A stretch of 64,000 nt of DNA from Methanomicrobia archaeon (lineage in GTDB: Archaea; Halobacteriota; Syntropharchaeia; Alkanophagales; Methanospirareceae), in NCBI GenBank assembly GCA_011049045.1, contig DSCO01000022.1:1260-65259 (forward strand), given 5' to 3'. The notes below the pieces were generated by a model that worked only from the letters and a program-made list of their open reading frames with translations, had not been told where the DNA came from and did no database searches. A program made the position numbers and the translations under genes. Shown here one piece after another: positions 1 through 60,847 of this stretch. Numbering within the stretch: position 1 is the first letter of the stretch; each line of letters begins with the position of its first letter.

Positions 1-1018
1 GCACTCAACGCGGCTTTCGCGCCCTCGCCGGCAGCCACAATGATCTGCTTCTCGGGCGCATTGGTCACGTCGCCGGCGGCAAAGATGCCCGGGACATTCG
101 TCTTACACTCACAGTCCACTTCTATCTCCTTACGCTCGTTAAGCCGCAGGATTGGTAATAATTGAAAATGGCATAAAGGCGGTGGTGGTCCACTTCTATC
201 TCCTTACGCTCGTTAAGCCGCAGGAGCTCCCGGGCGAAATCGCTATTGGGCATAGCGCCGATCTCGACGAAGACGCCGCCCAGCGGCAGATCAACCACCT
301 TACCTTCCGCCAAATGACGAAGCACGAGACCCTCCACACGATTCGTGCCTCTGATCTCATCGACCGCGTAGCCCGAGCAGAATTCAACCTTACCCGTTTT
401 TTTCGCCCGATCCACCAGCACCGGATCCGCCTTCACCCTGCCACGAACGATACTGTAAACCGTGTGTGCGTAGCTGGAGAGTTCATTAACTGCAGTGAGC
501 GCGGGATTGCCGCTACCGATCACGGCCACATCCTTATCACGAAAGAGTGGCGCATCACAGGTTGCACAGTAGCTCACGCCCCGTCCGATCAGCGTTTTTT
601 CCCCCGGCACGTTCAACGCACGTGCTCGACGACCCGATGCAATGATCACCGCTTTACTCGTGTATCGCTTACCACCTGAGGTGCGAATGGCGAACTGCAG
701 GTCCTCAGCAACCAGGTTCGTAACTTCATCACCGAGAGCGAAGGCGATCGGGAACTGTCGTACCTGCTCCTCAAATTTCTGCATCAATTCCGCACCGGAG
801 ACGTACTGAAACCCCATGTAGGTCTCCACGCCCGCAGCGAGCAGTGTCTGCCCTCCCACGTCCCTGCTAACTACCAGTGTCTCGAGCTTCTTCCGGGCTC
901 CATAAACCGCAGCAGTCAGTCCTGCGGGACCAGCACCGATAATGAGCAGGTCGTAGCACTGTTCCTCATCCACCTTTTTCTCTGCTCGCGGCTCAGGATC
1001 AAGTTCTTCAACTACCAT
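1..1018 (-). pseudogene. trxB: thioredoxin-disulfide reductase, frame broken by a 74-nt duplication/insertion; 3' end runs off the window
   Basis: ORF 122..1018 has the FAD GxGxxG motif (LLIIGAGPAGLTAA) and the CATC redox motif. Minus-strand translation of 1..113 gives [38 protein letters not shown], the expected TrxR C-terminal FAD motif, but it is out of frame with the upstream ORF. Confidence 0.8.
114..225. repeat. perfect 38-bp direct repeat (114..151 and 188..225) flanking a 36-bp unrelated insert (152..187) inside trxB
   Basis: Both copies read gtccacttctatctccttacgctcgttaagccgcagga. The insert is ttggtaataattgaaaatggcataaaggcggtggtg. The period is 74 nt, which is not a multiple of 3. 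Confidence 0.9.
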
Positions 1019-1025
1019 TTCATCG

Positions 1026-1667
1026 CTACACTCCCGCCTTCATGACGTGCGCTAGAAATTCTGCTTCCGACACCGCGCCCACAAAGGCTTCCCGCTCATT
1101 GATGATCACCTTGGGCACCACGAAGATCCGGTATTTCAGACTCAACTGCGGGAACTCCGCCGCTTCCACCACGTCGGTCGTAACAAGCTCGCTTTCTATC
1201 GCCATCTGCTGCGCCGTCTGCACCGCCTCGACACAGTACGGACAGGGCGGGGTGACGAAGACCTGCAGGTGAACCGGTTTGGTCAACGTTTTGAGTTGTT
1301 CACACGTCGAAGTCGTCAGCATCGAATCGCCCAGGGACACCAGCCGCAGTGCTTCGAGCAGTGCCGCGAATTCATAACCGCTTGGCAGGCCGAAGAATCG
1401 GATACCGTAGTCTTTCTGCCCTTCTACTACCGTCGCTGGCACCTTATCGATCCGGTAATCGTCTCGTTTCGCTGTGTCCACGGCCACATCGTAGAACTCG
1501 ACATATACCTGGTCAGAGGTTAGGGCAAGCTCCTCCATTAACGCACGAGTCTCTTCACCGGTCGGTGAACCGGAATCGTGCGTAAATACGACCAGATTCA
1601 CGGGCGCGGTCAGCCCCTGTAACTTCTCACGCACCCGCTGCGTGACCTCTCCGGATAATACTGGCAT
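1026..1667 (-). CDS. protein disulfide oxidoreductase / glutaredoxin-like protein (thioredoxin fold, CPYC site)
   Basis: 213-aa ORF with a CPYC active site (FVTPPCPYCVEAVQ) and a two-domain thioredoxin-like layout. It lies 7 nt downstream of the trxB start region on the same strand. Confidence 0.7.
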   Translation of the reverse strand: MPVLSGEVTQRVREKLQGLTAPVNLVVFTHDSGSPTGEETRALMEELALTSDQVYVEFYDVAVDTAKRDDYRIDKVPATVVEGQKDYGIRFFGLPSGYEFAALLEALRLVSLGDSMLTTSTCEQLKTLTKPVHLQVFVTPPCPYCVEAVQTAQQMAIESELVTTDVVEAAEFPQLSLKYRIFVVPKVIINEREAFVGAVSEAEFLAHVMKAGV

Positions 1668-3037: not shown

Positions 3038-3847
3038 TCACGGAAAAAGGATGTCCAGGGGCGGTGGCGTGAAAAAGCCGCGCAGCTCCGCCAGCCGGTA
3101 GAGTTCCGCGTGCGCCCGCACGACGGTTTCGGGCATGTCATAGGTGTATTCATTGACATACATCAAGGCGAACTGCTTCACGAGCGCCGCGTCCGCACCC
3201 CGTGCATACGTCATCGCGTGCTGCATCGCCTCCTCGACATGTTCCAGCGCGTATCGCACACTCGCACGCATGGCGGCCAGAAACGCCTGCTGGGTCTCTT
3301 CGGGGAGCTCCCGCTTGATGACGTTGATCCCGAGCGGCAGCGGCAGCCCTGTTCGCCCGTACCACCACGCCCACAGGTCAAGAACCTTCGCCAGCCCGTG
3401 CTGCGCATAGGTGATCTGCCCCTCATGGATCAGGAGGCCGGCATCGACCTCGCCCCGCGTTACTGCCGGTATGATCTGGTCAAATCGCATCTCCACTGGC
3501 TGGAACTCCGCGAGCGCTAACTTCAGTAACAGGTTCGCGGTGGTATACCGTCCGGGCACGGCTATACGCTTCCCCGCAAGAGCTTGCTCCGATCGTGCGA
3601 CCACTACCGGGCCGTAGCCATCACCCACGCTCGCGCCCGTTGCTAAGATCCGGTACTTCTTGTGCAGAAAGGCGTAGGCGTGCGATGAGAGCGCGGTGAC
3701 GTCCAGTTCACCCGCAAAAGCGCGCTTGTTCAGCGTTTCTATGTCCTCGACCAGCTGCTCTATCTCCAGTCTCGTCTGGATTCTCCCCTGGAAGAGTCCG
3801 TAAAACATGAATGCATCGTCTGCATCGGGCGTATGTGCAACGATCAT
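3038..3847 (-). CDS. mqnD: MqnD-like 1,4-dihydroxy-6-naphthoate synthase (MqnA/MqnD family)
   Basis: N-terminus MIVAHTPDADDAFMFYGL resembles the SPCPND..F.FY.L signature of MqnD. It is the last gene of the mqn operon. An alternative TTG start at 3922 overlaps the upstream stop. Confidence 0.6.
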   Translation of the reverse strand: MIVAHTPDADDAFMFYGLFQGRIQTRLEIEQLVEDIETLNKRAFAGELDVTALSSHAYAFLHKKYRILATGASVGDGYGPVVVARSEQALAGKRIAVPGRYTTANLLLKLALAEFQPVEMRFDQIIPAVTRGEVDAGLLIHEGQITYAQHGLAKVLDLWAWWYGRTGLPLPLGINVIKRELPEETQQAFLAAMRASVRYALEHVEEAMQHAMTYARGADAALVKQFALMYVNEYTYDMPETVVRAHAELYRLAELRGFFTPPPLDILFP

Positions 3848-3918
3848 GAATGAGAAATGAGGGAGCGAGCTAAAGAACGTTCTGAATACCGACGAAGCAC
3901 GCTGAGCTTGCTCAGCAG

Positions 3919-4998
3919 TCAAGCAACCAGCTCGTACAGCGTATTCCGCTGCGCTACGGGTCTGCCCACCGACGTCACCGCCCTCCGGATGGCCGCTACG
4001 GTCGCCGGTGTGTGTTCCTTTCCCGCTGCCGTGACCACGTTCTCCTCAAGGATCGTGCCCCCAAAGTCGTTCGCACCGAAGAAGAGCGCGAGCTTGTCGA
4101 CCTCAAAGTCCTGCGTGAGCCACGAAGCCTGGATATTTCGAATGGGATGGAGCACAATGCGCGAGATCGCCAGGACCTGCAAATAGCGCGTTACTGAAAC
4201 CGGCTGCTTCACCCGCTCGTAAAGGGCCGTGTGCTGTGGCTGGAAGGTCCAGGGAATGAATGCCGTGAAGCCGCCCGTTCTCGTCTGCAGATCCCGTATC
4301 GTGAAGAGGTGCTCAATGATCTCAGGGTCACGCTCTATGTGACCGAACATCATAGTTGCAGTTGTGCGCATGCCGATGCTATGCGCGCTCTCCATCACCG
4401 TGAGCCAGTCGTGCGCGCTGAGCTTACCCGGACTGAGTTCGTTACGTACACGGTCACAGAGGATCTCCGCGCCACCGCCCGGGAGCGAATCGAGTCCCGC
4501 AGCTCTGAGCCGTGCGAGCGTCTCCGTTATGCTCAATCCTTCATGCCGCGCGATGAAGGCGATCTCAGGCGGGGAAAGGCTGTGAAGTTGAACGCTCGGG
4601 AAATGCCGTTTTATTTCAGTGAACAACTCTTCGAACCATGCCATGCCGAGTTCCGGGTTGAGGCCGCCTTGCATCAGGATTTGTGTTCCGCCAGCGCGGA
4701 CGGTCTCGGCGACCTTCCGCAGTATTTCAGCGGTGCTCAAGACGTAGCTCTCTTCGTCATGTTTGGCGTAAAAGGCGCAGAATTTACACCGCGCCACGCA
4801 GCGATTGGTATAACTGATGTTCCGGTCAACCACGAACGTTACGAGCTCGCCGCAGCGCTCGTGCCTGATCCGGTCTGCTATGCCGCCCAGAACCGGCAAG
4901 GGCAGCTCAAAGAGCAGCTCCGCGTCCTCAAAGCTCAAATCCTCGCCTGCCAGGTTCCGTGCACCATAGCGCTCCCAGTCAGAGTATCCCGTATTCAT
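3919..4998 (-). CDS. radical SAM enzyme of the MqnC/MqnE (CofH-like) family
   Basis: YTNRCVARCKFCAFY radical SAM motif with a CofH/MqnC/MqnE-like C-terminal region. ATG at 4998 (MNTGYSDWER...); overlaps the mqnA stop. Confidence 0.7.
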   Translation of the reverse strand: MNTGYSDWERYGARNLAGEDLSFEDAELLFELPLPVLGGIADRIRHERCGELVTFVVDRNISYTNRCVARCKFCAFYAKHDEESYVLSTAEILRKVAETVRAGGTQILMQGGLNPELGMAWFEELFTEIKRHFPSVQLHSLSPPEIAFIARHEGLSITETLARLRAAGLDSLPGGGAEILCDRVRNELSPGKLSAHDWLTVMESAHSIGMRTTATMMFGHIERDPEIIEHLFTIRDLQTRTGGFTAFIPWTFQPQHTALYERVKQPVSVTRYLQVLAISRIVLHPIRNIQASWLTQDFEVDKLALFFGANDFGGTILEENVVTAAGKEHTPATVAAIRRAVTSVGRPVAQRNTLYELVA

Positions 4999-5740
4999 GG
5001 CACTTCTCCTCGAAGCGAGCAAGCCCCCGGCGCTCTCGCTCGCCCATCTGGTAGGTGAGCGCGTTAAAATAGCACTCGAGGAACTCTTCGGGCAACCCGA
5101 ACTGCTCATGCGCCGCTCCAATAATCACGTCCACGTGTTCCTTCCCCCACACGACGGATTCCTGAAGGGCTGCGCTCACCCCGGCCATATCACGCCCTTT
5201 CCGCGCTACCGCTATACCGAAGACCATGGGCAAGCCGGTTACATCCAGCCATGCCTCTCCCAGATCCATGACCACCCGGTATCGCTGCCGCGCCCTGATC
5301 GCAGCGTCACCAATGACGAGCGCGTACGGACAGTGCTCCAGTAATGCCGTGGCGGTACTTTCGTTCACGGGCACAATCTGGTGTCTGAGCCCGCGTTCTT
5401 GAAGAATGATCTCCAGCAGCTTGGCTGAGGTGGTGGTCTGGTTCGTCACCGCGATAGAGCCGCCATTCTCTCCTAATGGCGCGCCTTTCGAGACCAGAAT
5501 GACGCTCCAAACACTTCGCGCAGCCGCGATACAGAACTCATAGCGCTGCAGGGTCGCCTTGTTCTTGAGGTAGTAGACCGAAGGGACCGGGCTGAAATCA
5601 ATCTCCCCGCGTTCGAGCATACCAGCGAGCGTCTTCGGCATCGCTCGAATGACGCGGAACCCGTCCTGTTCAAGCCGGTAATAGGGTAAATAGCTGTTCA
5701 GAAGGCTAAACTTGCCGATTCGCTCGCTATCGCTCGTCAT
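4979..5740 (-). CDS. mqnA: MqnA-like chorismate dehydratase
   Basis: IGKFSLLNSYLPYY...LERGEIDFSPVPSVYY matches the MqnA pattern (IG.I.YLN..P...L..G.LD....SS..Y). ATG at 5740 overlaps the upstream gene end. Confidence 0.7.
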   Translation of the reverse strand: MTSDSERIGKFSLLNSYLPYYRLEQDGFRVIRAMPKTLAGMLERGEIDFSPVPSVYYLKNKATLQRYEFCIAAARSVWSVILVSKGAPLGENGGSIAVTNQTTTSAKLLEIILQERGLRHQIVPVNESTATALLEHCPYALVIGDAAIRARQRYRVVMDLGEAWLDVTGLPMVFGIAVARKGRDMAGVSAALQESVVWGKEHVDVIIGAAHEQFGLPEEFLECYFNALTYQMGERERRGLARFEEKCHEYGIL

Positions 5741-6797
5741 CTGAATGCACCTGTAGTATGTGATAATAAGTATCCCGTTCAGCGGGTATTTTATGTGCAC
5801 CGCGCACAAGGGCCAGAATGGTCTCCTTCGGAAGCCTGAGTGGCGTATGAGCGCCAGCTGCATGCGTAACCCGCTCCTCCATTATCGTGCCGTCCAGATC
5901 GTTCGCTCCATACTGCAATGCAACCTGGGCAAGCTTCTCGCCGAGCGCAACCCAGTACGCTCTGATACTCTTGAAATTCCGCAGCACGATACGGGCAATC
6001 GCAATGGTTCTCAGCACATCGATTGGATCCGTGCGGTCTTCGACGAGCCCCCGTGCCCTGAGTTCCGTGTTCTCCGGATGGAAGAGGAGCGGAACAAAGG
6101 AGATAAAACCGCCGGTCTTTTGTTGCAACGCCCAGAGTTTATAAAGATGAACTGCACGGTCTTTTGGCGTTTCCAGATGTCCAAAGAGCATGGTGGCATT
6201 ACTCCTGAGTCCGATGCGGTGCGCGCGCTCCATAATGCGGAGCCATTCGCCGGCCGCCACCTTCTCAGGGCAGATTGCTGCTCGCAGGGTGTCGTCAAGG
6301 ATCTCCGCGCCACCGCCGGGCAATGCGTCTAGGCCCGCGTCCCTGAGCCGATGGAGCACCTCGTCCACACTCATTCGCTCAAGCTGCGCCAGGTAGTAAA
6401 TCTCCGTCGCCGTCAGCGCCTTGATGACGACGCGGGGAAATCGCCTCTTTATGCGCGTGAACAGTTCCTCAAAGTACGCCACGTTCAGTTCCGGATTGAG
6501 CCCGCCCACGATATGAAGCTCCGTAGCGCCCAGTGTAACGGCTTCTGCTGCTTTCGCCAGTACCTCATCACCACTCATCTGATACGCGTCTGCATCACCT
6601 GCAGCGCGATAAAAGGCACAGAGCGGGCAGCGTGCTGTGCAGATATTCGTGTAGTTGATATGACGATTCACCACGTAGGTAACGAGGTTTCCGTTTCCGC
6701 GATTGATCGCATCAGCACGCGCTCCGAGCTCATGGAGATCACGGTCGAAGAGCGCCGCAATTGCAGCCGGGTTCCAGTCTTCGCTCGGAGCTATCAT
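5727..6797 (-). CDS. radical SAM enzyme of the MqnC/MqnE (CofH-like) family
   Basis: INYTNICTARCPLCAFYR motif. Paralogous to 3919..4998. First gene of the operon. Confidence 0.7.
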   Translation of the reverse strand: MIAPSEDWNPAAIAALFDRDLHELGARADAINRGNGNLVTYVVNRHINYTNICTARCPLCAFYRAAGDADAYQMSGDEVLAKAAEAVTLGATELHIVGGLNPELNVAYFEELFTRIKRRFPRVVIKALTATEIYYLAQLERMSVDEVLHRLRDAGLDALPGGGAEILDDTLRAAICPEKVAAGEWLRIMERAHRIGLRSNATMLFGHLETPKDRAVHLYKLWALQQKTGGFISFVPLLFHPENTELRARGLVEDRTDPIDVLRTIAIARIVLRNFKSIRAYWVALGEKLAQVALQYGANDLDGTIMEERVTHAAGAHTPLRLPKETILALVRGAHKIPAERDTYYHILQVHSDDER

Positions 6798-6842
6798 TTA
6801 ACCTCACTTTTGTTTGGATTACGCAGGTGGACTTTACTTTTC

Positions 6843-6856
6843 ACGTTTATAAACGT
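6843..6856 (-). promoter_or_regulatory. candidate TATA box within a perfect 14-bp palindrome upstream of the mqn operon
   Basis: acgtttataaacgt lies about 46-59 nt upstream of the 6797 start codon. Confidence 0.3.
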
Positions 6857-6957
6857 ATCCTTTTATGGTCCTATCCGGTTACGAATATGACCTGTCGTTC
6901 TGCAGGATCGCTCTGAATAGGTGGGTGATGACGGTCCACGGCCCGTTGAGGCGCTCA

Positions 6958-7710
6958 TTATACGTAGACCCACCGGCAGACCTTCTTCTCCACGCGGTCT
7001 ATCACCAGGTAAATACCAAATCCGAGCAGCGCCATGCTGACGATCGCCGCGTACAGGTCCGGGTAATTTGCACGACCCCACGCGTCCATAATCAGGTATC
7101 CCAGCCCCCTGGTCGTGGCAAACGATTCCACGAAGAAGAGCACGGCGATCGCCGTGCCCACACTGATCCGCGTGGCGGTAAGGATCTTGGGGATGCAGAT
7201 CGGGACGATGACGTGTCGATAAATCTCCTTCTTGCTCGCGCCTAGACTGAGCATGGGATAGATATAATTCCTGCTGATACTTCGGGATGCGTCCCGTGTG
7301 GTCACCAGGATCTGGAAGAAGACGATGATCTCGATCATGATGATCTTCGATAGATCGCCGATACCGAAGAAGAGGATGACCACTGGAAGCAGGACGATAT
7401 GCGGAATGGGATAGAGCATATAGATAAGAGGCGTGACGAGTGAATCCACCTGCTTCTCGTAGCTGAGGAGCCCGATCGGCACGGCAAGCGAGAACGCCAG
7501 AGCGATCCCGCAGGCAATCCTGTAGGTGCTGATGAGCAGATTCGAGAGCAAATCGGTTCTGAGGATCTTGAGGAAGGCGAAGAAGACCGTCAGCGGTGTT
7601 GGTAACGCGATCGAGTCCAGCATAACCGAGAGTAAATGCCAGATCCCGTAGATCACGGCCGCGATGACTAGATAGCTCCACCATCGAGGCTCTGCCGTAC
7701 TTCCTTGCAT
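6958..7710 (-). CDS. ABC transporter permease (NitT/TauT nitrate/sulfonate/bicarbonate type)
   Basis: 250-aa multi-TM ORF in an operon with the ATPase and binding protein. Confidence 0.75.
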   Translation of the reverse strand: MQGSTAEPRWWSYLVIAAVIYGIWHLLSVMLDSIALPTPLTVFFAFLKILRTDLLSNLLISTYRIACGIALAFSLAVPIGLLSYEKQVDSLVTPLIYMLYPIPHIVLLPVVILFFGIGDLSKIIMIEIIVFFQILVTTRDASRSISRNYIYPMLSLGASKKEIYRHVIVPICIPKILTATRISVGTAIAVLFFVESFATTRGLGYLIMDAWGRANYPDLYAAIVSMALLGFGIYLVIDRVEKKVCRWVYV

Positions 7711-15251: not shown

Positions 15252-15613
15252 TTCACGGTGGCGCGCAAAGGGCATAATCAGTACGTGCTCTGTACGTCGT
15301 TGGTGTCAGCGATCCTTTTCATGGTCTTCATCAACGACGGCAGTGCTGACCCCGGCGGAGACGGTGGCGCGGCACGGCCAACCACTCCGGCTGAGACGAT
15401 AAGAGCTGCGGAAACAGGCGAAGAGGGAGAAACACCGGAGAGCGTAGTCACTGCTGCTCTCCCGCCCGTTTGGTTTTAGCTTCTTCTTTCTCTTTTCCCG
15501 CTCACTTCATACAGCTATTACAGGTACTGCCGAAGGCGCGGATCAAAAGTATTATTATGCCGCTCTTCTTTCTTGATATGGTAGCTTGCACTATCATTCA
15601 TTCGGAGTCCACT

Positions 15614-17242
15614 ATGCAGAACCCTCTGGAGCGACCGGTCCTGGTTACGTCCGCATTGCCCTATGTTAATGGCTACTGTCACATCGGGCATCTGAGGACC
15701 TATGTCCCCGCGGACATCTATGTACGCATGCTCAGGAAGTTGGGTGCAGACGTAACGTTTATCAGCGGGTCTGATACCCACGGTACGCCCATCGTTCTGA
15801 GCGCAGAGGCGCAGGGCATCACACCCGAGGAGGTCGTTGCGAAGTATCATGAGCATTTCCGGTCGGTCTTCACCGAGCTTCATATCGGGTTCGACTATTA
15901 CGGGCAGACGGATTCAGCCACGAACCATCAACGCACCCTGGACATCGTTACGCGGTTGATTGATAACGGGTACGTGTACCTGGAAACGGTCAAGCAGGCG
16001 TATTGCAGTAGCTGCGGGCGATTCTTGCCCGATCGTTATGTGGAAGGAACGTGCCCGTACTGCGGCGAGAGCGCACGCGGCGACGAGTGTGACCAGGGCT
16101 GTGGCAAGCATCTGGAGCCCGGTGAGATCTTAGAGCCGCATTGCAAGATCTGCGGCTGTGCAGCGGCTTTCAAGGATCAGGAGCATTACTACTTCAAGCT
16201 CTCATCCTTTAAGGCGTTTCTTCTCGGCTATCTGGAAAACCTGGATGGCACGCTGAACGCGCGGAACTATGCGCGTGAATGGGTGAAGAAGGAGCTGGCT
16301 GATTGGTGTATCACGCGGAACCTGGACTGGGGCGTGAAGTTCCCGGGCCGTGAGGATCTCGTGGTTTACGTCTGGGTCGACGCGCCGATCGGCTATATCG
16401 CCTTCACGGAAGAGCTGCTGAAGGCGCGTGATACGGGCGAGCACGCATGGGAACGGTACTGGAAGGAGCACGATGCGCGGATCGTGCATTTCATCGGCAC
16501 GGACATCGTGTATCATCACTGCATCTTCTGGCCCGCGATGCTGAAAGGCGCGGGCTATTCCCTACCCGCTGCGGTCGTCGCCTCGGGCATGGTGACGATC
16601 AACGGCAAAGCGTTCTCGAAGACGCGCGGTAATGTCGTCTGGGTCTCCGAGTTCCTGGAGCGGTTCCATCCTGACACGCTGCGGTACTTTCTGGTGGCGC
16701 AGTCGAGCCACACCAAGGAGCTGGATTTCTCCTGGGAGTCATTCGCCTTGCGTGTGAACAAGGAGCTGGTAGCGATCCTCGGTAATCTGGTGAACCGTAT
16801 TCTCTCATTTACGCACCGGAACTTCGGCGTTATACCCGCGGGCACTATCCGGGAAGAGGTCATCGAGGAGATCGAGAAGACGAAGCTGGAAGTGCTGCGT
16901 GCGCTGGAGGAGTACGAGTTCAAGAAGCTCGTAGACGCGGTAATGAAGCTCGCGGACTTTGGGAACAGCTATTTCCAGCGCGAGGAGCCCTGGCACTTGA
17001 TCAAGACGGGCGATCAGGGTAGGGCGCGTGTGGGTGAGATCATCAAGAACGTATTGCAGCTCGTAAAAGCGATCTGCATCTTACTGGAGCCGGTGATGCC
17101 GGCGAAGATGGACGAGGTGTGGCAGCAGCTCGGCATGGCCGGTGATCTGCATGCGGTGCAACTGGATGAATTGACCGTGCCCGTGGAGAGCGGGAAGCAG
17201 GTGGCGAAGCCGAGGATATTGTTCGAGAAGGTGGAAGTCTAG
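15614..17242 (+). CDS. metG: methionyl-tRNA synthetase
   Basis: [13 protein letters not shown] (HIGH motif), zinc knuckles CSSCGRF / CPYCG, and KFSKTRG (KMSKS-like). ATG at 15614 is preferred over the long ORF start at 15470. Confidence 0.9.
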
Positions 17243-17278
17243 CCTAGCCTAGCCTAGCCTAGCCTAGCCTAACCTAAC
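17239..17278. repeat. pentanucleotide microsatellite (CTAGC)x6 + (CTAAC)x2 that includes the metG stop codon
   Basis: ctagcctagcctagcctagcctagcctagcctaacctaac read directly; the metG TAG is at 17240..17242. Confidence 0.95.
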
Positions 17279-47028: not shown

Positions 47029-47103
47029 GCTCCGCTGGTGTAGTTCGGCCAAGCATAAGGGCCTCTCGAGCCCTTGACCGGGGTTCAAATCCCCGGCGGA
47101 GCA
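47029..47103 (+). tRNA. tRNA-Glu (anticodon CUC)
   Basis: Hand-folded cloverleaf: acceptor GCTCCGC/GCGGAGC, anticodon stem AGGGC/GCCCT with loop CT-CTC-GA, T arm CGGGG-TTCAAAT-CCCCG, discriminator A. No encoded CCA. Confidence 0.9.
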
Positions 47104-47157
47104 TCTAACCAAAGGTTCAAAGCCCCCACTTTTAGACTGCTCCACAACCCGCACATT

Positions 47158-47520
47158 TCACTCGCGATTCAAATGTTCTTCCAGGCCCTGCCTCAGCCGC
47201 GTCCTGAATTCCGGCTTCTTCATCAGCGCCAACAAGACGGATACCATATCGAATCCCTCCTCCTCGGATCTTCTTATCTCATCGAGCAACAACAGCTGCC
47301 GATTCGCATATTCGCGCGCGTATTCTTCCGCCGCGAGTCCGCGATGGAGATAATAGCTGATCGCCTGCGAGCGACTGTCCCAGAGACCCTCTTCCACCTC
47401 TTTATCGAGCCGTTGCTTCGTCCGTGAAGTAAGGCAGATCGAAAACGTATCCTTAATGTCCCCAGCTTTTTTTCTCTTAGATTCGGCGCGTCCGCCCCGC
47501 GCCTCCCCGCCTTCTACCAT
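47158..47520 (-). CDS. hypothetical protein with possible ribbon-helix-helix region
   Basis: KDTFSICLTSRTKQRLDKEVEEGLWDSRSQAISYYLHRGL resembles a CopG/RHH pattern. Confidence 0.45.
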   Translation of the reverse strand: MVEGGEARGGRAESKRKKAGDIKDTFSICLTSRTKQRLDKEVEEGLWDSRSQAISYYLHRGLAAEEYAREYANRQLLLLDEIRRSEEEGFDMVSVLLALMKKPEFRTRLRQGLEEHLNRE

Positions 47521-47610
47521 TTGGTTTCACCTCACCGATACCATTCTTTATCTTTGTTTATAAATATTGCTATTCAACAGATAAAAAGTATTTCGTTCAT
47601 GTGTAACAAT

Positions 47611-47639
47611 ACCATTTGTCCATACAAACACCATTTGTC
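47611..47639. promoter_or_regulatory. two direct ACCATTTGTC repeats (19-bp period) between divergent TATA-like boxes
   Basis: ACCATTTGTC occurs at 47611..47620 and 47630..47639. TATA-like tttataaata lies near 47557 (for the minus gene) and ttttatatac near 47646 (for the plus genes). Confidence 0.35.
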
Positions 47640-47720
47640 TATTAGTTTTATATACTCGCCCCGCGCTAGATAATTCCTGTTGGGGTTCGGCTAACCCAAA
47701 CAAAAAGGAGGCATGTTGCC

Positions 47721-47993
47721 ATGGAAGACAAACCGAAAGAAACGGAAGTAATGGGACACCCTGGCATTGTAGGAATTGAGCTAGATGAGGGGCACATATC
47801 TCGTTCTACCCCAGAACACACCCACTCCCCGTCTAAGAAACCTCTAAGTCTGGAATCGCGGCAGGAATTGAAACAATTTGTTGAGAAATGGCGACTGTTC
47901 ATCGACGATCCTTCGCTTTTGGATCAGCCGATGCGCATGGTTGCAGAGTTCTTCAGAGAAGTTGCGATCGAGGAGGGGCTGATCGGTGAATGA
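47721..47993 (+). CDS. hypothetical protein
   Basis: 90-aa ORF preceded by aaaaaggagg; its stop overlaps the next start (ATGA). Confidence 0.45.
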   Translation: MEDKPKETEVMGHPGIVGIELDEGHISRSTPEHTHSPSKKPLSLESRQELKQFVEKWRLFIDDPSLLDQPMRMVAEFFREVAIEEGLIGE

Positions 47994-48280
47994 AAGACAT
48001 CGTCGTGCAAAAGTCGCTGCGGTGCTCGGTGATCAGGGACACGGTGACGACCAAAGACGGTGGGGTCACCGAAGAGCGCACCGTGAGGCTCGAGAACGAC
48101 ATTTTCGCCATCACACTAAGAGGGCAGCCCGACAAGCTGCCCTTCACCGAGGGCGAAGAGTACAGCGCCGAATTCCGCACGCCGCAGATGCAGCTACCCT
48201 TTCTTGACGAGACGACCGCCGAGAGCGTGCAGCCGGCGGACGCGAACGGCACGGACGGTGATATGGAAAGCGGTGAGTGA
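47990..48280 (+). CDS. hypothetical protein
   Basis: 96-aa ORF translationally coupled to the upstream ORF. Confidence 0.45.
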   Translation: MKDIVVQKSLRCSVIRDTVTTKDGGVTEERTVRLENDIFAITLRGQPDKLPFTEGEEYSAEFRTPQMQLPFLDETTAESVQPADANGTDGDMESGE

Positions 48281-48438
48281 CACGAACACGGCGGTGGGGT
48301 ACGGGCCTACTCCAAAGCGGACTCGTTTCACCTCCTCTTTTAGCTTCCCGCTGAGTTATCGCCCCCATAACTCCAGGGTTCTAAAGTCCGCGGAGAAATA
48401 GGTCCGGCCCCAGATTCCCGTTCGCATGGACCGGCGGT

Positions 48439-48786
48439 GTGATCACAGCCCTCAATGCCGATGAAGAACACGAGATCGCGGCACGCCGTCATCGCTGCGC
48501 GCTCTGCGGCGAATCAAAGCAGCTGACGCATAAGAGGATCTCCGGCGGCGTGCCCTCTTTTATTTGCAACGAGTGCGCGCAGGACTACGTGCAGCGCGCA
48601 CAACGCGTGCAAACGCGGCACGAGTCTCCTAAAAAGCTCCTCATCGAAGTCTCTGCTCGCGTCGCAACAGTAACGTTCAACGGTATCGTCGAGGACCTCA
48701 AACGCCTGGTCGATGAGTACCTGGACGAAGAGGGCTTCGCTGACGATATAGATATCCGGCTGATCAGGTCCGGGGTGAGTGAGTGA
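48439..48786 (+). CDS. ClpX-type C4 zinc-finger protein
   Basis: CALCGESKQ...SFICNECAQDY resembles the ClpX N-terminal zinc finger (C..CG......ICdeC). Confidence 0.5.
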   Translation: MITALNADEEHEIAARRHRCALCGESKQLTHKRISGGVPSFICNECAQDYVQRAQRVQTRHESPKKLLIEVSARVATVTFNGIVEDLKRLVDEYLDEEGFADDIDIRLIRSGVSE

Positions 48787-49103
48787 GTAACATGATCCTC
48801 ATAGCGTATTCTGCACTCACGCTGCGTGAGGCCTGTTATGTCTGTAAGACCGTCGGCGGTCATTTCGATGCCGACCGTCAAGCGGTCATGCTGCAGGAAG
48901 AGGACGAGAGCGATGTACGTCTATACCATGCGTCGGAGGCGTCTTGCGACGAAGCAGATAGAACGCTAACCTGCAAAATCTGCGGTCAGGTACTAAAGGG
49001 CGCATCCGAGCAGGCCGCAGTAAACGAACTCGGGTGGAAGAAGCGCGAACTCTCATGGATATGTCCGCACTGCGTATGGGAGCACAAGCTTCAAGAAGCA
49101 TGA
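48783..49103 (+). CDS. hypothetical zinc-ribbon protein
   Basis: CYVC...CKICG...CPHC cysteine pairs; overlaps the upstream stop. Confidence 0.45.
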   Translation: MSNMILIAYSALTLREACYVCKTVGGHFDADRQAVMLQEEDESDVRLYHASEASCDEADRTLTCKICGQVLKGASEQAAVNELGWKKRELSWICPHCVWEHKLQEA

Positions 49104-49131
49104 AAGACTCCCAACGAAGTCGGGCTGGCTG

Positions 49132-50403
49132 GTGAGTGGGAACGAAAATAGCTTAGCTGCTGCTTCCATGAGTGACGGTTTCGAACTCGCAAAAAAAGAA
49201 GTACAAAAACAAGACCCCTCTTCACCAGACCCTAGCTTGAATTTTAACTTGTTGTCAGTACAACGCCCGAGACCAGCTCTAATTGGTCCAGGGCCCTTTA
49301 GCTTCGATATCGCAGAAAAGAAGTTAAAAAACAAGACCCCCCTTTTTCCGCACAAGACCCCGAAGTTAAATTTTAACTTGTCCCTGCTACAGCAGCTCTC
49401 CCGCGGCCGACGCCCCGCTCAGATCGCACGTGAGCTCGGCATCTCGAAGCCCGCGCTGCAGTACCATCTGAACCAGCTCAAGGCCGCAGGGCTCATTTCA
49501 AAGCTCGGCTACGGGTGCTGGGAAGTTAACGATACAGCCCCGATTAACCCCCAGAAAAGAAGTACGAAAACAACCCAAGTCACTCTCGACAAGACCCACA
49601 AGTTAAAATTTTCGGAGATGCCTGATTCCGTCCGCGGGCACGCATTTGTGTTCGTACTGAAGGTGCCGCCGGGACTGCTGAACTGGAACAACCGGCGGCG
49701 TGAAGAATATCTCAAGAGGCACGGGATCGCATACCAGCCGCTCAGGATCGCAGGTGGCGGGCAACGCATCTGGGTGGGCGGCCGGAAGGTCTGGCTGACT
49801 ACCAGCTCGATCGTCATCTACGAGAAGAGTTCGTTCTTCGCGGCAACGGCGAAAGACGCGAAGCATCATGCGCTCTTCTCATTCATCGCAGTCGTGAAGA
49901 AACTCGAACGAACACTCCATGCGGACTTCACGTTCAAACTCGGGAAAGAATACCGGTTCAAGGTGTCAAGGCAGCACTATGCGCTCGTGCAGAACGCACT
50001 CGCAGAGCAGTACGACCACGAGGGCAAGCGACTGCAGGTGCGCGAGCCGGACGCTGGCAAGTTGTGGTTTGTGATTGATAACTCGTTCAACCTGCACGAG
50101 GCGGAGACGGTGCACCCGCGCACCGCGGACTCGGACAACGCGAAGGTGCAGAACTTCTTCAACTCACTGAAAGCGTGCCCGGTGACCACGGACGTGCTCG
50201 TCACCGCGATCGCGGGCGTCACGCAGAACCAGGTCCTCTTCGCGGAGAATATCACCAATCACATCCAGGCGGTTCGGGAGCTCGGGCAGGGTGTGCGGGA
50301 GATGAACCAGCTGCTCGCAAAGCTCGAGGTCACGCAACGCGACGCGCGCGCATCGCAGGCTGAGCGGATGCAGACGCGCGAGGTGAAGAAGAAGAAGTGG
50401 TAG
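49132..50403 (+). CDS. wHTH (ArsR-like) protein with triple N-terminal repeat and large unknown C-terminal domain
   Basis: RRPAQIARELGISKPALQYHLNQLKAAGLISK HTH. Three in-frame repeats of a K-rich ...LNFNL unit. Could be a plasmid/virus replication or regulatory protein. Confidence 0.6.
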   Translation: MSGNENSLAAASMSDGFELAKKEVQKQDPSSPDPSLNFNLLSVQRPRPALIGPGPFSFDIAEKKLKNKTPLFPHKTPKLNFNLSLLQQLSRGRRPAQIARELGISKPALQYHLNQLKAAGLISKLGYGCWEVNDTAPINPQKRSTKTTQVTLDKTHKLKFSEMPDSVRGHAFVFVLKVPPGLLNWNNRRREEYLKRHGIAYQPLRIAGGGQRIWVGGRKVWLTTSSIVIYEKSSFFAATAKDAKHHALFSFIAVVKKLERTLHADFTFKLGKEYRFKVSRQHYALVQNALAEQYDHEGKRLQVREPDAGKLWFVIDNSFNLHEAETVHPRTADSDNAKVQNFFNSLKACPVTTDVLVTAIAGVTQNQVLFAENITNHIQAVRELGQGVREMNQLLAKLEVTQRDARASQAERMQTREVKKKKW

Positions 50404-50612
50404 TGATCATCCCGCGTCGTAAAACCATTCGCATGATGCGAAACGCAAACCACGAAGCGTGCTGGCCCGAGATACAGAAGAAGGCACGGCGCGTCAGAAC
50501 GGTCGTTGACGACACAGGCGCGCGCTTCGTCGTTTACCGCATCTCAGGCAAAGAGCTCATGCAGGTGATGATCAAGCATCGCACCACAATACTCGCCCCG
50601 CGTGACGATTAA
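50397..50612 (+). CDS. hypothetical protein (weak)
   Basis: 71-aa ORF overlapping the upstream stop, with a non-ATG start. Confidence 0.25.
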   Translation: MVVIIPRRKTIRMMRNANHEACWPEIQKKARRVRTVVDDTGARFVVYRISGKELMQVMIKHRTTILAPRDD

Positions 50613-50691
50613 ACATTCCGCTACCACGCCCATTCCGAAGGTTGCGGTTTGCATGTGCAAGTTTTATATAGTATTCAAACTGTTCTCGTGA

Positions 50692-51288
50692 TTGGGGCAT
50701 GAATATGGTAAGAAAACCGATGAAGGTAAGCTTCTGGAAGACGCTCACATCTTCACACATCCTGTAAGGCACCGGATCGTGGAGCTGCTCGCGAAAAGGC
50801 CGATGCACATCGATGCGCTAAGCAGAGCGTTAGATGAAAAGAGGGGGCTCGTCGCCTATCATCTTGATACCTTGCAAGAGCACGGATTCGTGAAGAGCGA
50901 GTACGGTATCTTCCTTTTACAAGAGCTAGAGCAAATCGTAACGGCACTGAGGGTGTACAGGGTGACCGATAAGGTGGTGGAGGTGAAGGTGAAAAGAAAA
51001 AGGAGACAAAATTTAAAAGCCAGATCCATCCGGGACGCCATCACCAGCATTGGGTGCGGGACCTCTGGGTTCTCCAGGTTTGTCTTCATTTACCCAACCA
51101 CCATCCCAGCCAGGACCATCTTGCACGCCATCACCAGCATTGGGTGCGGGACCTCGTGTTTCACTAGCAATTACACCCGGAGAAAGGATGGTTGCCACAA
51201 CTATTGCAGTCAAAAATATAACCAGTATCTTTTTCATGTACTCATCACCGCCTATCTCGTTTTGCACCTACATGTGCAAAATGAATAG
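50692..51288 (+). CDS. ArsR-like wHTH regulator (paralog 1); true 3' end uncertain
   Basis: HPVRHRIVELLAKRPMHIDALSRALDEKRGLVAYHLDTLQEHGFV. Homologous at DNA and protein level to 55094..55399. The part beyond about 51000 is antisense to the peptide gene and probably not coding. Confidence 0.55.
   Translation: MGHEYGKKTDEGKLLEDAHIFTHPVRHRIVELLAKRPMHIDALSRALDEKRGLVAYHLDTLQEHGFVKSEYGIFLLQELEQIVTALRVYRVTDKVVEVKVKRKRRQNLKARSIRDAITSIGCGTSGFSRFVFIYPTTIPARTILHAITSIGCGTSCFTSNYTRRKDGCHNYCSQKYNQYLFHVLITAYLVLHLHVQNE
51013..51237 (-). CDS. small secreted protein with duplicated RGPAPNAGDGV.DG.G motif
   Basis: ATG at 51237 is preceded by ggcggtgatgag (SD-like). Signal peptide MKKILVIFLTAIVVATILSPGVIASE. 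Two copies of RGPAPNAGDGV(Q/P)DG(P/S)G arise from 31-nt perfect DNA repeats 90 bp apart. Confidence 0.6.
   Translation of the reverse strand: MKKILVIFLTAIVVATILSPGVIASETRGPAPNAGDGVQDGPGWDGGWVNEDKPGEPRGPAPNAGDGVPDGSGF
51261..51280. promoter_or_regulatory. inverted repeat TTTGCAC-N6-GTGCAAA upstream of the peptide gene (candidate ArsR-like operator)
   Basis: Read directly. The 9-mer CATGTGCAA recurs at 50652..50660, just upstream of the TATA-like box of the regulator gene. Confidence 0.35.
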
Positions 51289-51344
51289 GGGCAAACCACC
51301 TTAAAAGGTTTTAAGGTCTTATTCGGTTTAATCTTCCTCCTTTT

Positions 51345-51605
51345 TATGTACAACTCACAGAGCTGCTTGCGGAGCGGCCGATGCCTATCGATGCTCTGAG
51401 CCGTGCCTTAGATGAAAAGAGGATGCTCGTCGCGTACCATCTCTCTACGTTGCAAGAGCGCGGATTCGTGAAGAGCGAGTACGGTATCTTCCTTCTGCAA
51501 GAGCCAGAGCAGAGAGTCACGGCGCTGCGGGTGTACCGGGTGACCGATAAGGTGGTGGAGGTAAAAAGAAGCTATCCGCTTCCCCTGTTCCGCGCTCAGA
51601 TATGA
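51345..51605 (+). pseudogene. 5'-truncated ArsR-like wHTH gene (paralog 2)
   Basis: The frame reads YVQLTELLAERPMPIDALSRALDEKRMLVAYHLSTLQERGFVKSEYGIFLLQE..., colinear with paralog 1 from its helix 1 onward. There is no start codon at the homologous N-terminus. Confidence 0.5.
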
Positions 51606-51756
51606 AGAGCGATAAAAAAAGGTGTTACGAGGTGCTATTTGGTATAGGATATATCGAAGCGGTTTTAATGTTTATGGCGATCATATACATGAAATCCCGA
51701 TCAAAATAGGCAATTTGTAGGCTACTTATACCTATTTTTAGGTAAAGGAGATTAGC

Positions 51757-52134
51757 ATGATGAGCGAAGAAAAAGCTGAATACGTACTTGTATCGCTCTG
51801 TTTGTTGGGGGTACCATGCAGATTTCATGGCAAGCGGGAAGTTATGGGGCACCGGATCGGGCGCCCATCCCTTATCGCTAGGCTCGAAAAGCGGTATCGA
51901 CTGCTTCCACTTTGTCCGGAGCAGCTTGGGGGGCTTACTACACCGAGACCAGCGGCGGAAGTCATAAGCAGCGGACGGGTGCGAGCGAAGGACGGTGCGG
52001 ACGTCACCGAGCAGTACGAACGAGGCACCGAGATCGTACTTGAGATCGTGGAGCGGTACGGCATAAAGCGGGCGTGGCTACTCAAGGATAGCCCGGCATG
52101 TGGTCGCGGCTACGGGATCGTGCAGGAAAGATAA
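51757..52134 (+). CDS. DUF523-family protein (2-thiouracil desulfurase-like)
   Basis: SLCLLGVPCRFHG...CPEQLGGLTTPRPAAE matches the DUF523 Cys motif pattern. Confidence 0.65.
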   Translation: MMSEEKAEYVLVSLCLLGVPCRFHGKREVMGHRIGRPSLIARLEKRYRLLPLCPEQLGGLTTPRPAAEVISSGRVRAKDGADVTEQYERGTEIVLEIVERYGIKRAWLLKDSPACGRGYGIVQER

Positions 52135-52251
52135 GTACCTGCTAAAGAGGTACTTACCAGAAGTACACAACCTTTTATAAATGGAAATAGTATTCTCTTT
52201 TGTTGAGATGGGGGTGGAGTTAAAAAGGCAAGGAAGCTGACTGCATCATCG

Positions 52252-52560
52252 ATGAAGAAAGGGATGAAGGTGTGGGGTGTGGTGGCGGTTTTGATGGTTC
52301 TTGGGAGTTTGCTCGTTGGCGTTGTGAGCGCAGGCGAAGTCCCATTTTCGCCATATTATCCTGAACCAAGATCTAACAAACAGTGGTATCTTAATCAAAA
52401 TGATGGCTATCTTCCAGAAAGCACTACAACAAATTGTGGTCCTGCTGCAGCTGCGATGGTAATAAATTATTTTACAGGTAAGAAGCTGAGTCTCCAATAC
52501 CGGGATTTAAAGCACTACTCGCCATCGCAGGAGTATTCGGCGTGGCATTCTTCGTTTTGA
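52252..52560 (+). CDS. secreted papain-like (C39-like) cysteine peptidase, N-terminal fragment only
   Basis: Signal peptide plus the catalytic-Cys motif NCGPAAAAMVINYF. The ORF ends after about 100 aa without the His/Asp part. Confidence 0.4.
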   Translation: MKKGMKVWGVVAVLMVLGSLLVGVVSAGEVPFSPYYPEPRSNKQWYLNQNDGYLPESTTTNCGPAAAAMVINYFTGKKLSLQYRDLKHYSPSQEYSAWHSSF

Positions 52561-52570
52561 AAAGACGGAA

Positions 52571-53038
52571 ATGAATGAGAATGGGATAGGTGAAGAGGAA
52601 TACAGGGCTTTTATTGGAAAAAAAGCCGATTATTATACCAAAAAATGGTCAGCTATGGATGTTCGGCAAAGTAAGTGGTCTTGGAATTGGGGTGCTTTTA
52701 TCTTCAGAGAATTATGGTTTGCTTATAGGAAGATGTATATTTTTGCTTTGATCCTTTTTATTTTTCTTGGTTTAATAGTTGTTGTATCCTCAATATATTT
52801 ACAAATCGAAGATGAAGATATGGCTAACTTTGTGAAAGGTGTAAAAATATTATATTGGGCTATTGTTGCCGTCTATGCGAACTACTTGTATCACAAACAC
52901 GCAGACAAGAAGATTATTGATTTTAAAAGCACAAGTACCGGTGAATTGGCTACATCAGAATTAGCTAAACGCGGAGGGACCTCCTTAATTGCTCCCGTTA
53001 TTTTTATAGTTTTTGAAGGCATCCTATTTTTTATATAG
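52571..53038 (+). CDS. DUF2628-like membrane protein
   Basis: YYTKKWSAMD...WNWGAFIF.ELWFAYRKMY pattern and two TM segments, in an AT-rich block. Confidence 0.5.
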   Translation: MNENGIGEEEYRAFIGKKADYYTKKWSAMDVRQSKWSWNWGAFIFRELWFAYRKMYIFALILFIFLGLIVVVSSIYLQIEDEDMANFVKGVKILYWAIVAVYANYLYHKHADKKIIDFKSTSTGELATSELAKRGGTSLIAPVIFIVFEGILFFI

Positions 53039-53127
53039 AATGAAAGCCACAAAATTATTGATAAGAGTAATGCTTTGAGCGTTGAGGAAGTGCTAAAAAA
53101 GGCTCGTGCAAGACACAGCATGACCTG

Positions 53128-53619
53128 TTGGATCGCAGGATTCTCCGGCTCACTGGCGAGGCATTCGGTCAAGGAGCCTTACTGACGCAGGCAGACCTAG
53201 CGATCCTCTTGAACGAGAGCACGAAAACTGTTGCGCGGCATATCAAGGACCTGGAGACTCATGGCCACGTCGTGCCAACGAGAGGCAGCTGGAAGGACAT
53301 CGGTCCCGGGGTGAGTCACAAGAAACGCATACTGGAGCTTTACCTCAAAGGCGATGAATACACGGAGCTAGAGCGGAAGACCAAGCACAGTGGCGAAGCG
53401 ATAATGCGGTACGTGAAAGACTTCGCCCGGGTCCTGGTTCTTACCGAGGAAGAGTACTCAGCGGCAGAGCTCAGGATCGTAACCGGGCTATCGGACAGGA
53501 TAATTCGAGAGTACCAGGAGCTTATTGAGCAGTATTCAGGTCACGAGTACCGTGAGCGGTTAGAGCACCTGAGAGCGATCTTCAAAAAAAGGCGACGATC
53601 GGCGACCCCCGGGAGCTAG
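53128..53619 (+). CDS. DUF1670-like HTH protein (IS-associated family), probably N-terminally truncated
   Basis: LTQADLAILLNESTKTVARHIKDLE HTH. No ATG start; followed by an unrelated fragment ORF. Confidence 0.4.
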   Translation: MDRRILRLTGEAFGQGALLTQADLAILLNESTKTVARHIKDLETHGHVVPTRGSWKDIGPGVSHKKRILELYLKGDEYTELERKTKHSGEAIMRYVKDFARVLVLTEEEYSAAELRIVTGLSDRIIREYQELIEQYSGHEYRERLEHLRAIFKKRRRSATPGS

Positions 53620-53906
53620 GGGTCTCAGGCACCTCAGGGAGGTGGTCTCCATGAACGTTCCCGCGATGATCGAAGCGAAGGTGGCGAACTCCTTGAAAGG
53701 TGTGCTCATAGACCTCATCCAGCGCGAGTACCAGTTCATCGCCGGTGAGATAATATCCAGGAGATGTTCGCCAATGATGTCTTTTTCACTATTATGTACA
53801 GCTCACAGAGCTGCTTGCGGATCCGGTACATTTAAATATCGTCCGAACCTCATCTCTACGTGGTCTGATACAGACCGCCAACGCACCTGCCAAACCGCAA
53901 CCTACC

Positions 53907-54839
53907 ATGACCCTCAAGGAAAAAGCGATTGCGTGGTTCAGGCTCACTCGACTCCCCCTCTATTCCCTGGCCTTTATCGCCTATAGCATGGGTGCGGCCG
54001 CGGCGCACGCGACCTATCAGCAATTTGATGGGGCGGTCTATGCGCTCGGCGGTCTGGGGCTCATATTGATTATGCTGAATGCGGTGATCCTCAATGAGTA
54101 CGTGGATTACCCCTCCGATTGTCTCAATAAGAACCGAGGCGCGTTCAATGCGGGTTCAGGCGTGCTGGTAGAGGGTAAACTCGGATTTTCTGAGGTAAAG
54201 GCGGGTTTCGTCCTCATACTCTGTGCAATCCCCGTTTGTGCCTATGTGCTCATCCAGTTAGCAACGGAAGTCTCGGCAACTTCCGTTCTCGCATTGGTAT
54301 TTATTGGTATCTTCTTTGGCTGGGGATATTCCGCGCCACCGCTTAAATTCAGCTATCGCGGTCTCGGCGAACTTGTCAATAGTTTGATGCACGGCCCCGC
54401 GATTGTGCTTGCCGGGTTCGTACTTCAGACCGGAATGTGGACGAGCTCATTGCCCTGGCTCTTGGGCACCCCGCTCTTTTTCGCTACACTTGCTGCAGCG
54501 ATTTTGGCTGATCTTCCTGATTACCGATCCGATGCTGAGATCTCCCGAAAGACCGTTCCCGTCATCATTGGACCACGATTGACGGCACTACTCGCGTCCG
54601 GGTTCATTGCGCTTGCCGTTATTGCTGGTTTAGCGCTCTGGTATGTTGAACTCATTAAATATCCACTTGGACTGCTGATTCTTATTGTTGTCCCCAATGC
54701 AGTGATTCAAGAACGCGCAGTAATCACAATGATTAAAAAAGCTGATTATGATCGCCACATGACGGATATTATGAAATATGCGGATTTACAAATGCTTCTG
54801 TTTGGACTCTTACCATTACTAGCGTTCTTATTAAGATAA
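53907..54839 (+). CDS. UbiA-family prenyltransferase (MenA-like)
   Basis: 310 aa with about 8-9 TM segments, an N(D/E)Y.D...D motif (LNEYVDYPSD) and a second Asp-rich site (DLPDYRSD). Confidence 0.7.
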   Translation: MTLKEKAIAWFRLTRLPLYSLAFIAYSMGAAAAHATYQQFDGAVYALGGLGLILIMLNAVILNEYVDYPSDCLNKNRGAFNAGSGVLVEGKLGFSEVKAGFVLILCAIPVCAYVLIQLATEVSATSVLALVFIGIFFGWGYSAPPLKFSYRGLGELVNSLMHGPAIVLAGFVLQTGMWTSSLPWLLGTPLFFATLAAAILADLPDYRSDAEISRKTVPVIIGPRLTALLASGFIALAVIAGLALWYVELIKYPLGLLILIVVPNAVIQERAVITMIKKADYDRHMTDIMKYADLQMLLFGLLPLLAFLLR

Positions 54840-55093
54840 AATTCTGAACTAGGAGACGGAGTGGTCGACAGCGATCTTGCTGAGAATCTCGCGCTCAATG
54901 AAATCTTATATTCAGCTTTCTTCCCTCTCAAAGATGCAGATCAAGCCCAGCTGGCCGCACAGGGCGATCTCCTGCAACCGCCAGCCGCTCGCAGCCGGGT
55001 CCGAACTGTCTCGACTTGAGCATCCGGGTAGCTAAGGTTCATCTGTGTGCGTTCTATATACCGTAAAGTTACTAATGTGATTGGGGCAGAAAT

Positions 55094-55399
55094 ATGGAAA
55101 GAGAACCGTCAGAAGGTAAGCTTTCAGAAGACTTTTACGTCCTCATTCATCCCATACGTTACCGAATCGTCAAATTGCTTGCCGATAAGCCGCTGCACGT
55201 AAATGCAATTGCCCTCGCGATGGGTATTGAAAGGCGGCACATTACCTACCATTTACGGATCCTGGAGGACTCTGGATTCATAACGAGCAAGTACGGAGTC
55301 TCGGAAGAGAAAAAATTGAGGGGAAAGGCACTAAGGGTGTGTACGCTTACTGACAAGGTCGCGGAAGTGAAAGCGGCGTTGAAAAAGGATCTGGAGTAG
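55094..55399 (+). CDS. ArsR-like wHTH regulator (paralog 3)
   Basis: HPIRYRIVKLLADKPLHVNAIALAMGIERRHITYHLRILEDSGFI. The promoter/5' region is homologous to that of 50692. Confidence 0.7.
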   Translation: MEREPSEGKLSEDFYVLIHPIRYRIVKLLADKPLHVNAIALAMGIERRHITYHLRILEDSGFITSKYGVSEEKKLRGKALRVCTLTDKVAEVKAALKKDLE

Positions 55400-55476
55400 G
55401 ATCTAATTGCCTTCGTCTGGGGGCGGAGCCAGCTAGCTTCCGAGTTTAAGTTCATCTCGATCCTATTCGTACTTAT

Positions 55477-58773: not shown

Positions 58774-58853
58774 CTCGCAAGCTCTGAAGAAACGACAAGC
58801 TCAGTAGTCACATCTGAAGAACTGAGTTCAGGATCTTTAACCTTGAGTTTCCT

Positions 58854-60031: not shown

Positions 60032-60056
60032 AAAAGGTCCTGCGACGGTGGAGAAT

Positions 60057-60845: not shown

Positions 60846-60847
60846 AG

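Follow-up and report, generated by a model that had tools for sequence, protein, structure and literature searches.

How did a conserved redox gene of an uncultured ANME-1-family archaeon come to hold a short stretch of unrelated DNA between two identical copies of its own coding sequence, and which process could have put it there? The gene lies at the very start of the window, by which we mean the whole 64,000-nt stretch of DNA that was analysed.

A split reductase gene and its neighbors

A TrxR/AhpF-like reductase gene on the minus strand of the window is divided into two parts. The larger part, at positions 122 to 1018, is a truncated ORF of 298 aa in which 277 native residues are followed by an out-of-frame tail of 21 aa, and which ends without the GxFAAGD FAD motif. 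The displaced 3′ end of the gene occupies positions 1 to 119 of the same strand, extends beyond the window start and stops 34 nt outside the window; the leftover ORF of 50 aa begins at a GTG at position 119 and is a separate gene in ENA and JGI records. Removal of 74 nt, corresponding to one repeat plus the insert described below, produces a single 325-aa ORF ending in HKD, and all 39 equivalent registers of this removal restore the frame. The repaired ORF aligns end to end with TrxR structures and with the C-terminal half of AhpF, and the junction of the inserted unit sits just ahead of the conserved GxFAAGD motif. A sequence-only reading of this DNA had stated that the ORF ends at position 122 with loss of the FAD motif and that a 74-nt deletion restores the reductase frame, and both statements hold. 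Since the insertion shifts the frame and severs the C-terminal FAD-binding motif, we consider the gene to be inactivated.

The same reading had named the gene trxB. In NCBIfam the reductase scored 304 bits against TIGR01292, less than the cut-off of 343, and was under both equivalog cut-offs. Its upstream partner is an intact gene for a protein disulfide oxidoreductase (positions 1026 to 1667, minus strand), which scored 236 bits against TIGR02187, above the cut-off of 185, and the exact oxidoreductase protein is also present in an NCBI MAG (HDS44839.1). With a TrxR/AhpF-like protein that scores under its cut-off and an oxidoreductase as neighbor, the name trxB is approximately right rather than exact. 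Two tandem futalosine-pathway-type gene pairs (CofH_C radical SAM plus PF02621 VitK2_biosynth) were observed at window positions 3038 to 7684 of the minus strand. Downstream of them lie a SPASM radical SAM gene and the oxidoreductase/reductase pair, and this gene order is kept in the sister lineage discussed below.

Geometry of the repeat-insert-repeat unit

The interruption consists of the 38-mer GTCCACTTCTATCTCCTTACGCTCGTTAAGCCGCAGGA, present at window positions 114 to 151 and again at 188 to 225 with 38/38 identity, and of an apparently foreign, spacer-sized insert of 36 nt, TTGGTAATAATTGAAAATGGCATAAAGGCGGTGGTG, that lies between the two copies at positions 152 to 187. The whole unit (38 + 36 + 38) measures 112 nt. 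In gene orientation, the copy at 188 to 225 is the first of the target duplication and closes the truncated ORF, while the copy at 114 to 151 is the second, and from it the original frame resumes into the C-terminal FAD motif. The two-match outcome for the 38-mer was obtained in 0 of 100 shuffles. The bases bordering the 38-mer copies differ at either end, so the identity cannot extend beyond 38 nt; the boundaries of the unit are sharp, and microhomology is absent at both junctions. The insert has a G+C content of 14/36 (38.9%) against a window average of about 57%, contains no ORF, and is predicted by DNA folding to be unstructured, with no significant fold. Its ends, TTGGTAAT... and ...CGGTGGTG, are not complementary, and no terminal inverted repeats were found in it. 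The paired identical 38-mers around 36 nt of this base composition, and the lack of terminal inverted repeats, had been described from the letters alone, and our analysis reproduced that geometry exactly.

A unit of this kind could in principle be functional, with the 74 nt being removed or skipped through a bulge-helix-bulge mRNA intron, ribosomal bypass, or a reversible ON/OFF deletion between the repeats. Such recoding would account for the finding that exact removal of 74 nt restores the frame in any of 39 registers, and slippage between direct repeats with a 36-nt spacing should cause occasional deletions. However, RNA folding of the transcript gave an energy no better than that of shuffles (z = +0.8), no bulge-helix-bulge motif was present in the minimum-free-energy or centroid fold, and an Rfam search of the region returned no family, including no CRISPR-DR match. 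The element also occurs in a single lineage among the 12 cluster members and the at least 120 homologues listed that are described in the next section, and the sister lineage is clearly in the course of losing this gene. Recoding in any of these forms is therefore highly improbable. Intron, ribozyme and structured-RNA readings were rejected on the folding and Rfam results, including the archaeal bulge-helix-bulge intron, whose motif is absent from the predicted folds. The ON/OFF switch suggested by the sequence-only reading likewise drew no support from the relatives, where a simple deletion has removed most of the gene from the sister lineage.

The insertion is derived

Three intact homologues with 86-90% identity (P0006, P0010 and P0134) carry one 38-mer and no insert. 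DNA alignment of the window with the intact loci L070 and L071 showed a single 38-mer region and a gap of exactly 74 nt. The uninterrupted, single-copy target in these relatives indicates that the insertion is the derived state. Clustering at 90% protein identity places the truncated product in a group of 12 members, 2 of which are intact homologues, and the intact member MGC9445064.1, from "Candidatus Methanospirareceae archaeon", is the closest named relative; Methanospirareceae corresponds to ANME-1c in the order Methanophagales. In a wider homologue search, which recovered the intact P0134 at 86%, the matches listed were overwhelmingly full length and a few were somewhat shorter, and truncation at the insertion position was seen in none of the homologues listed (at least 120). 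The 12-member cluster contained no second insertion allele and no longer "array", and the insert-bearing allele is confined to one lineage among the 12 cluster members and the homologues listed (at least 120). A database record of the exact repaired 325-aa protein, which would represent the pre-insertion allele of the same strain, was not found.

In a sister lineage, represented by more than 20 JGI, ENA and Logan contigs, the reductase has been cut to a 60-aa C-terminal remnant that directly follows the oxidoreductase gene. This deletion of about 795 nt (L003:5985-6183, also in L004-L022) matches window positions of about 226 to 1018. Its right-hand junction, ..GTGTAGCGA|GGGAGC-TCGTGCGG.., lies 6 nt upstream of the start of the window repeat, and the deletion endpoint falls inside or beside the palindrome GGAGCTCC (window positions 223 to 230). 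Because the sister lineage has lost most of the reductase, the gene looks dispensable in this clade, and a disruptive insertion could thus become the assembled allele. Two independent rearrangements within a few bases of each other would be expected by chance at an estimated frequency of about 4%, so that a local hotspot is still to be reckoned with. The stability of a local hairpin at the target does not exceed that of shuffled sequence.

Presence of the unit at the level of the reads

The DNA comes from a metagenome assembly, in which a chimeric contig or mis-joined strain variants might mimic an insertion. The corresponding ENA contig, ERZ27245514:k141_4001, was assembled with MEGAHIT and is 69,584 nt long, and position 1 of the window is its position 1,401. 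The unit is thus about 1.5 kb inside the contig, and a contig-end artefact was rejected. The JGI contig 3300022547|Ga0212126_1000123 (70,338 nt) is base-identical to the ENA contig over 4,505 nt that include the 112-nt unit, and the truncated 298-aa product and the 50-aa leftover ORF appear in JGI records as well. With a final MEGAHIT k-mer length of 141, which exceeds the 112 nt of the unit, the unit is spanned by single read-derived k-mers.

A further line of evidence comes from the Logan contig L074 (logan:SRR7787260_21), which is identical to the locus up to its own end; this end lies exactly 30 nt inside the first copy of the repeat. At the k=31 of Logan assemblies, a 38-mer bordered on the left by two different sequences in the reads forces a unitig to end after k-1 = 30 nt. 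The insert is not phiX sequence, and the 36 nt are presumably not adapter sequence either. While the ENA and JGI contigs may share reads, the base-identical results of two pipelines, the k-mer length of 141 and the Logan break point together make an assembly or sequencing artefact very unlikely. The unit is real at the level of the reads, and the assembly or chimeric-read artefact that the sequence-only reading had listed as an alternative can largely be set aside on the identical ENA and JGI contigs and on a Logan break that fits a graph branch. More generally, the points at which contigs break in k=31 assemblies can serve as markers of short exact duplications like that of the reductase 38-mer.

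Searches for the source of the 36 nt

No further copy of the 36-mer was detected in the window at up to 3 mismatches, and the 69.6-kb contig and about 290 kb of related loci contained chance 9-10-mers only. A local duplication was rejected as the source of the insert on this result, which also answers the concern that the 36-mer might be a local chromosomal duplication. The description of the insert as unrelated to trxB can be extended to the whole contig; the insert is foreign to it. In the roughly 294 kb of clade DNA, the only other nearby direct repeats were imperfect tandem coding repeats (mobile-element region).

Searches of IMG/VR with the full 36-mer and three 20-21-mers were negative or at chance level. 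The insert had no blastn match among GenBank phages, a set which should include the published complete ANME-1 virus genomes, or among PLSDB plasmids, and its central 22-mer had no match in JGI metagenome contigs and GTDB genomes. Similarly, 13-mers of the insert did not match the stored parts of the ANME-1 spacer and mobile-element supplementary files of Laso-Perez et al. The sequence-only reading had envisaged a source among viral or plasmid contigs or the spacers of the host, and neither a protospacer nor an identical spacer was recovered from the collections searched.

Within the insert, ATTGAAAA (window positions 161 to 168) resembles the ATTGAAAG/C motif that ends many archaeal CRISPR repeats and forms the crRNA 5′ handle, a match with an estimated chance of about 1% that was spotted after the fact. 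As the insert holds this archaeal repeat-end motif, ATTGAAA(A), the host's own array was considered as the donor. A GTDB scan for two TAATAATTGAAA copies at CRISPR spacing produced multi-copy runs in Bacteroidota-group MAGs and AT-rich tandem repeats at the 3 archaeal loci inspected, and no record titled ANME-1. An origin of the insert in a host array is unsupported.

Comparison with CRISPR spacers and adaptation genes of ANME-1

Laso-Perez et al. (2023, PMC9894754) reported that the CRISPR repeats of ANME-1 frequently adjoin cas operons of types I-B and III, and extracted 20,649 unique spacers. We measured 81 ANME-1 spacers from the supplementary file of that study (PMC9894754) and found lengths of 34-42 nt with a mode of 37, a length of 36 nt in 20/81, and a mean G+C of 39.4%. 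The insert, at 36 nt and 38.9% G+C, is within this ANME-1 spacer range, the comparison spacers being those of marine ANME-1 and not of this organism.

The sequence-only reading had predicted cas1/cas2 and CRISPR arrays elsewhere in the genome, with repeats of about 37-38 bp and spacers of about 36 bp. Neither the window nor the rest of the 69.6-kb contig, as far as annotated, contains a CRISPR array or any cas gene, a result to which Pfam scans contributed. Leader-like AT-rich sequence was also absent beside the insertion site. A protein search with Cas1b of Haloferax volcanii (pHV4) listed at least 120 matches, which were near-identical type I-B Cas1s and, where named, all haloarchaeal, and tblastn of Cas1 against plasmids returned no methanogen or ANME record. 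The published Guaymas IMG spacer PAA006 had 0 matches in JGI contigs.

Proposed off-target integration by Cas1-Cas2

The geometry of the unit, its derived state, the foreign insert with spacer-like length and G+C, and the CRISPR background of ANME-1 make off-target ("neo-CRISPR") spacer integration by Cas1-Cas2 the best explanation, to which we assign a probability of about one half. In the proposed course of events, the Cas1-Cas2 of an ancestor would have integrated a spacer-sized piece of DNA (about 36 nt) in the reductase gene rather than in a CRISPR array. Two strand transfers on opposite strands, one repeat length (37-38 nt) apart, would have been followed by gap filling that duplicates the intervening target and leaves a repeat-spacer-repeat. 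The frame would thereby have been shifted and the C-terminal FAD-binding motif cut off, which would inactivate the gene, and the insertion may have been tolerated because the gene is dispensable in the clade. To our knowledge, staggered two-site integration with gap repair is the only well-described mechanism for a repeat-sized duplication around a spacer-sized insert. We infer Cas1-Cas2 as the agent, a native repeat of 37-38 nt and the neutrality of the event; the unit would fit a native repeat of 37 nt just as well, given one spacer end base that matches the target by coincidence (37+37).

Off-target integration with target duplication has been established in E. coli and reported on circumstantial grounds in two other species, according to later papers that describe the work of Nivala, Shipman and Church (2018, Nat Microbiol 3:310). 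The reductase locus resembles those E. coli units in that a non-CRISPR target within a gene is duplicated at repeat length around an insert of spacer length, with neither leader nor cas genes adjacent. The E. coli work reportedly concerned a type I-E system with a 28-bp duplication and 33-nt spacers. There, Cas1-Cas2 was over-expressed, whereas the unit described here, with 38 + 36 nt, is natural and part of the assembled allele of a wild archaeon, with Cas1-Cas2 as its putative integrase. For archaea, the Cas1-Cas2 of Pyrococcus furiosus integrates at non-CRISPR sites in vitro with attacks one repeat length apart, and the off-target sites it uses resemble the native 30-nt repeat in some sequence features (Grainy et al. 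2019, NAR; PMC6698737). The present case would be similar in its archaeal adaptation complex, its non-CRISPR target and the spacing of the two attacks.

Other known structures match the unit in part. It shares the repeat-spacer-repeat order and lengths in the CRISPR range with a canonical CRISPR array or orphan mini-array. Unlike those of a canonical array, its repeats are reductase coding sequence that is single-copy in relatives, and it has one spacer, no leader and no cas neighbors; the canonical array was rejected on the coding-sequence repeat, the single spacer and the lack of an Rfam CRISPR-DR match. An insertion flanked by a target-site duplication is also what IS elements, MITEs and casposons produce. 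Their target duplications are about 2-15 bp long. These elements are larger than 36 nt and have terminal inverted repeats, whereas the insert here has none and the duplication is 38 bp, and an IS element or MITE was rejected for these reasons.

Several observations count against the Cas1-Cas2 reading. Besides the lack of arrays and cas genes in the window and annotated contig, of a protospacer in the collections searched and of a leader-like sequence at the site, and the marine origin of the spacers used for comparison, the duplication is, at 38 nt, about as long as CRISPR repeats usually get, and the endpoint of the sister deletion, 6 nt from the repeat boundary, could reflect a locally fragile site instead. 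The main rival is a Cas-independent accident of repair or replication, in which the fill-in of long overhangs or template switching, after a fork collapse or a staggered break at a fragile spot, duplicated 38 nt and captured a 36-nt filler from elsewhere. Such an accident, which we regard as unlikely though far from negligible, would be in keeping with the absence of CRISPR-Cas evidence for the genome in the window and annotated contig, with the absence of a protospacer from the collections searched, and with the independent deletion of about 795 nt ending beside GGAGCTCC, which hints at a hotspot. It accords less well with junctions that are free of microhomology, a filler that is absent from the 69.6-kb contig and a local hairpin that is no more stable than shuffles, and it does not predict that both lengths fall in the CRISPR range. 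No archaeal repair pathway known to us would leave a clean 38-nt duplication together with 36 nt of unrelated filler. Compared with this rival, the scar of an integrated element (considered below), a recoding element and an artefact are minor alternatives.

Off-target integration as first proposed from the letters was thus strengthened by the geometry, the derived state and the spacer-like length and G+C, and it gained nothing from the contig, which holds no cas gene or array, or from the search for a protospacer; we regard the locus as a well-documented candidate rather than a demonstrated case. Another possibility, which we consider improbable, is that micro-insertions with a long stagger arise from an integrase or repair pathway that has yet to be described, or that a mobile element, for instance the one integrated in this contig, supplied Cas1-Cas2 in trans. 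Should the genome prove to have no arrays with 37-38-nt repeats or no cas1, a 38-bp stagger with a 36-nt foreign insert would point to something new.

If Cas1-Cas2 did act off target here, the locus would add a natural case, from an uncultured archaeon of the ANME-1 family, to a phenomenon already known. Most demonstrations of off-target integration have relied on over-expression of Cas1-Cas2 in E. coli, and the few cases from nature are supported by circumstantial evidence. CRISPR adaptation would then have a real mutational cost in the wild and could seed repeat-spacer-repeat units in archaea, and an inactivated conserved redox gene would be the assembled allele of a wild population. The unit would also offer a natural off-target site from which the recognition properties of the integrase of an uncultured organism might be learned.

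A probable mobile-element region and other features of the window

From just after a tRNA-Glu(CTC) gene at window positions 47029-47103, the sequence has a lower G+C content and many small unannotated ORFs, and this region continues through 47029-64000 to the contig end (L023). It encodes ArsR/MarR-type regulators, a Rad51/RadA-like protein and a family-B DNA polymerase (56545-58773), with a phage-type integrase located just beyond the window end. The region has the appearance of an integrated mobile element; a clear att repeat was not identified, the best match being 12 nt. The part from UbiA to DUF3368 is a separate contig of 14.3 kb in another assembly (L024).

Direct repeats of 30-50 bp around an insert are the normal signature of integrase-mediated integration. 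The reductase unit could on this basis be the scar of a tyrosine-integrase element with a 38-bp attP, which formed attL and attR on entry and was then nearly all deleted so that 36 nt were left. In favor of this idea, the same contig harbors an integrated element beside tRNA-Glu that encodes a phage-type integrase. It nevertheless requires a second, near-perfect internal deletion, the 36 nt are unmatched in the resident element and in the virus and plasmid collections, and no relative examined has an element at the site. We consider such a scar very improbable, and off-target integration by Cas1-Cas2 is preferred over it.

Imperfect tandem repeats are present in the mobile-element region at window positions 51018-51167, 62230-62399 and 49194-49381. 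They comprise units of about 60-65 nt with 83-85% identity, 90 and 105 nt apart, and 29- and 23-nt pairs, 122 and 129 nt apart. These differ from the reductase unit in that the whole period is repeated. Elsewhere in the window, a pentanucleotide microsatellite, (CTAGC) x 7.6, is located at positions 17239-17276, at the 3′ end of the methionyl-tRNA synthetase ORF (15470-17242).
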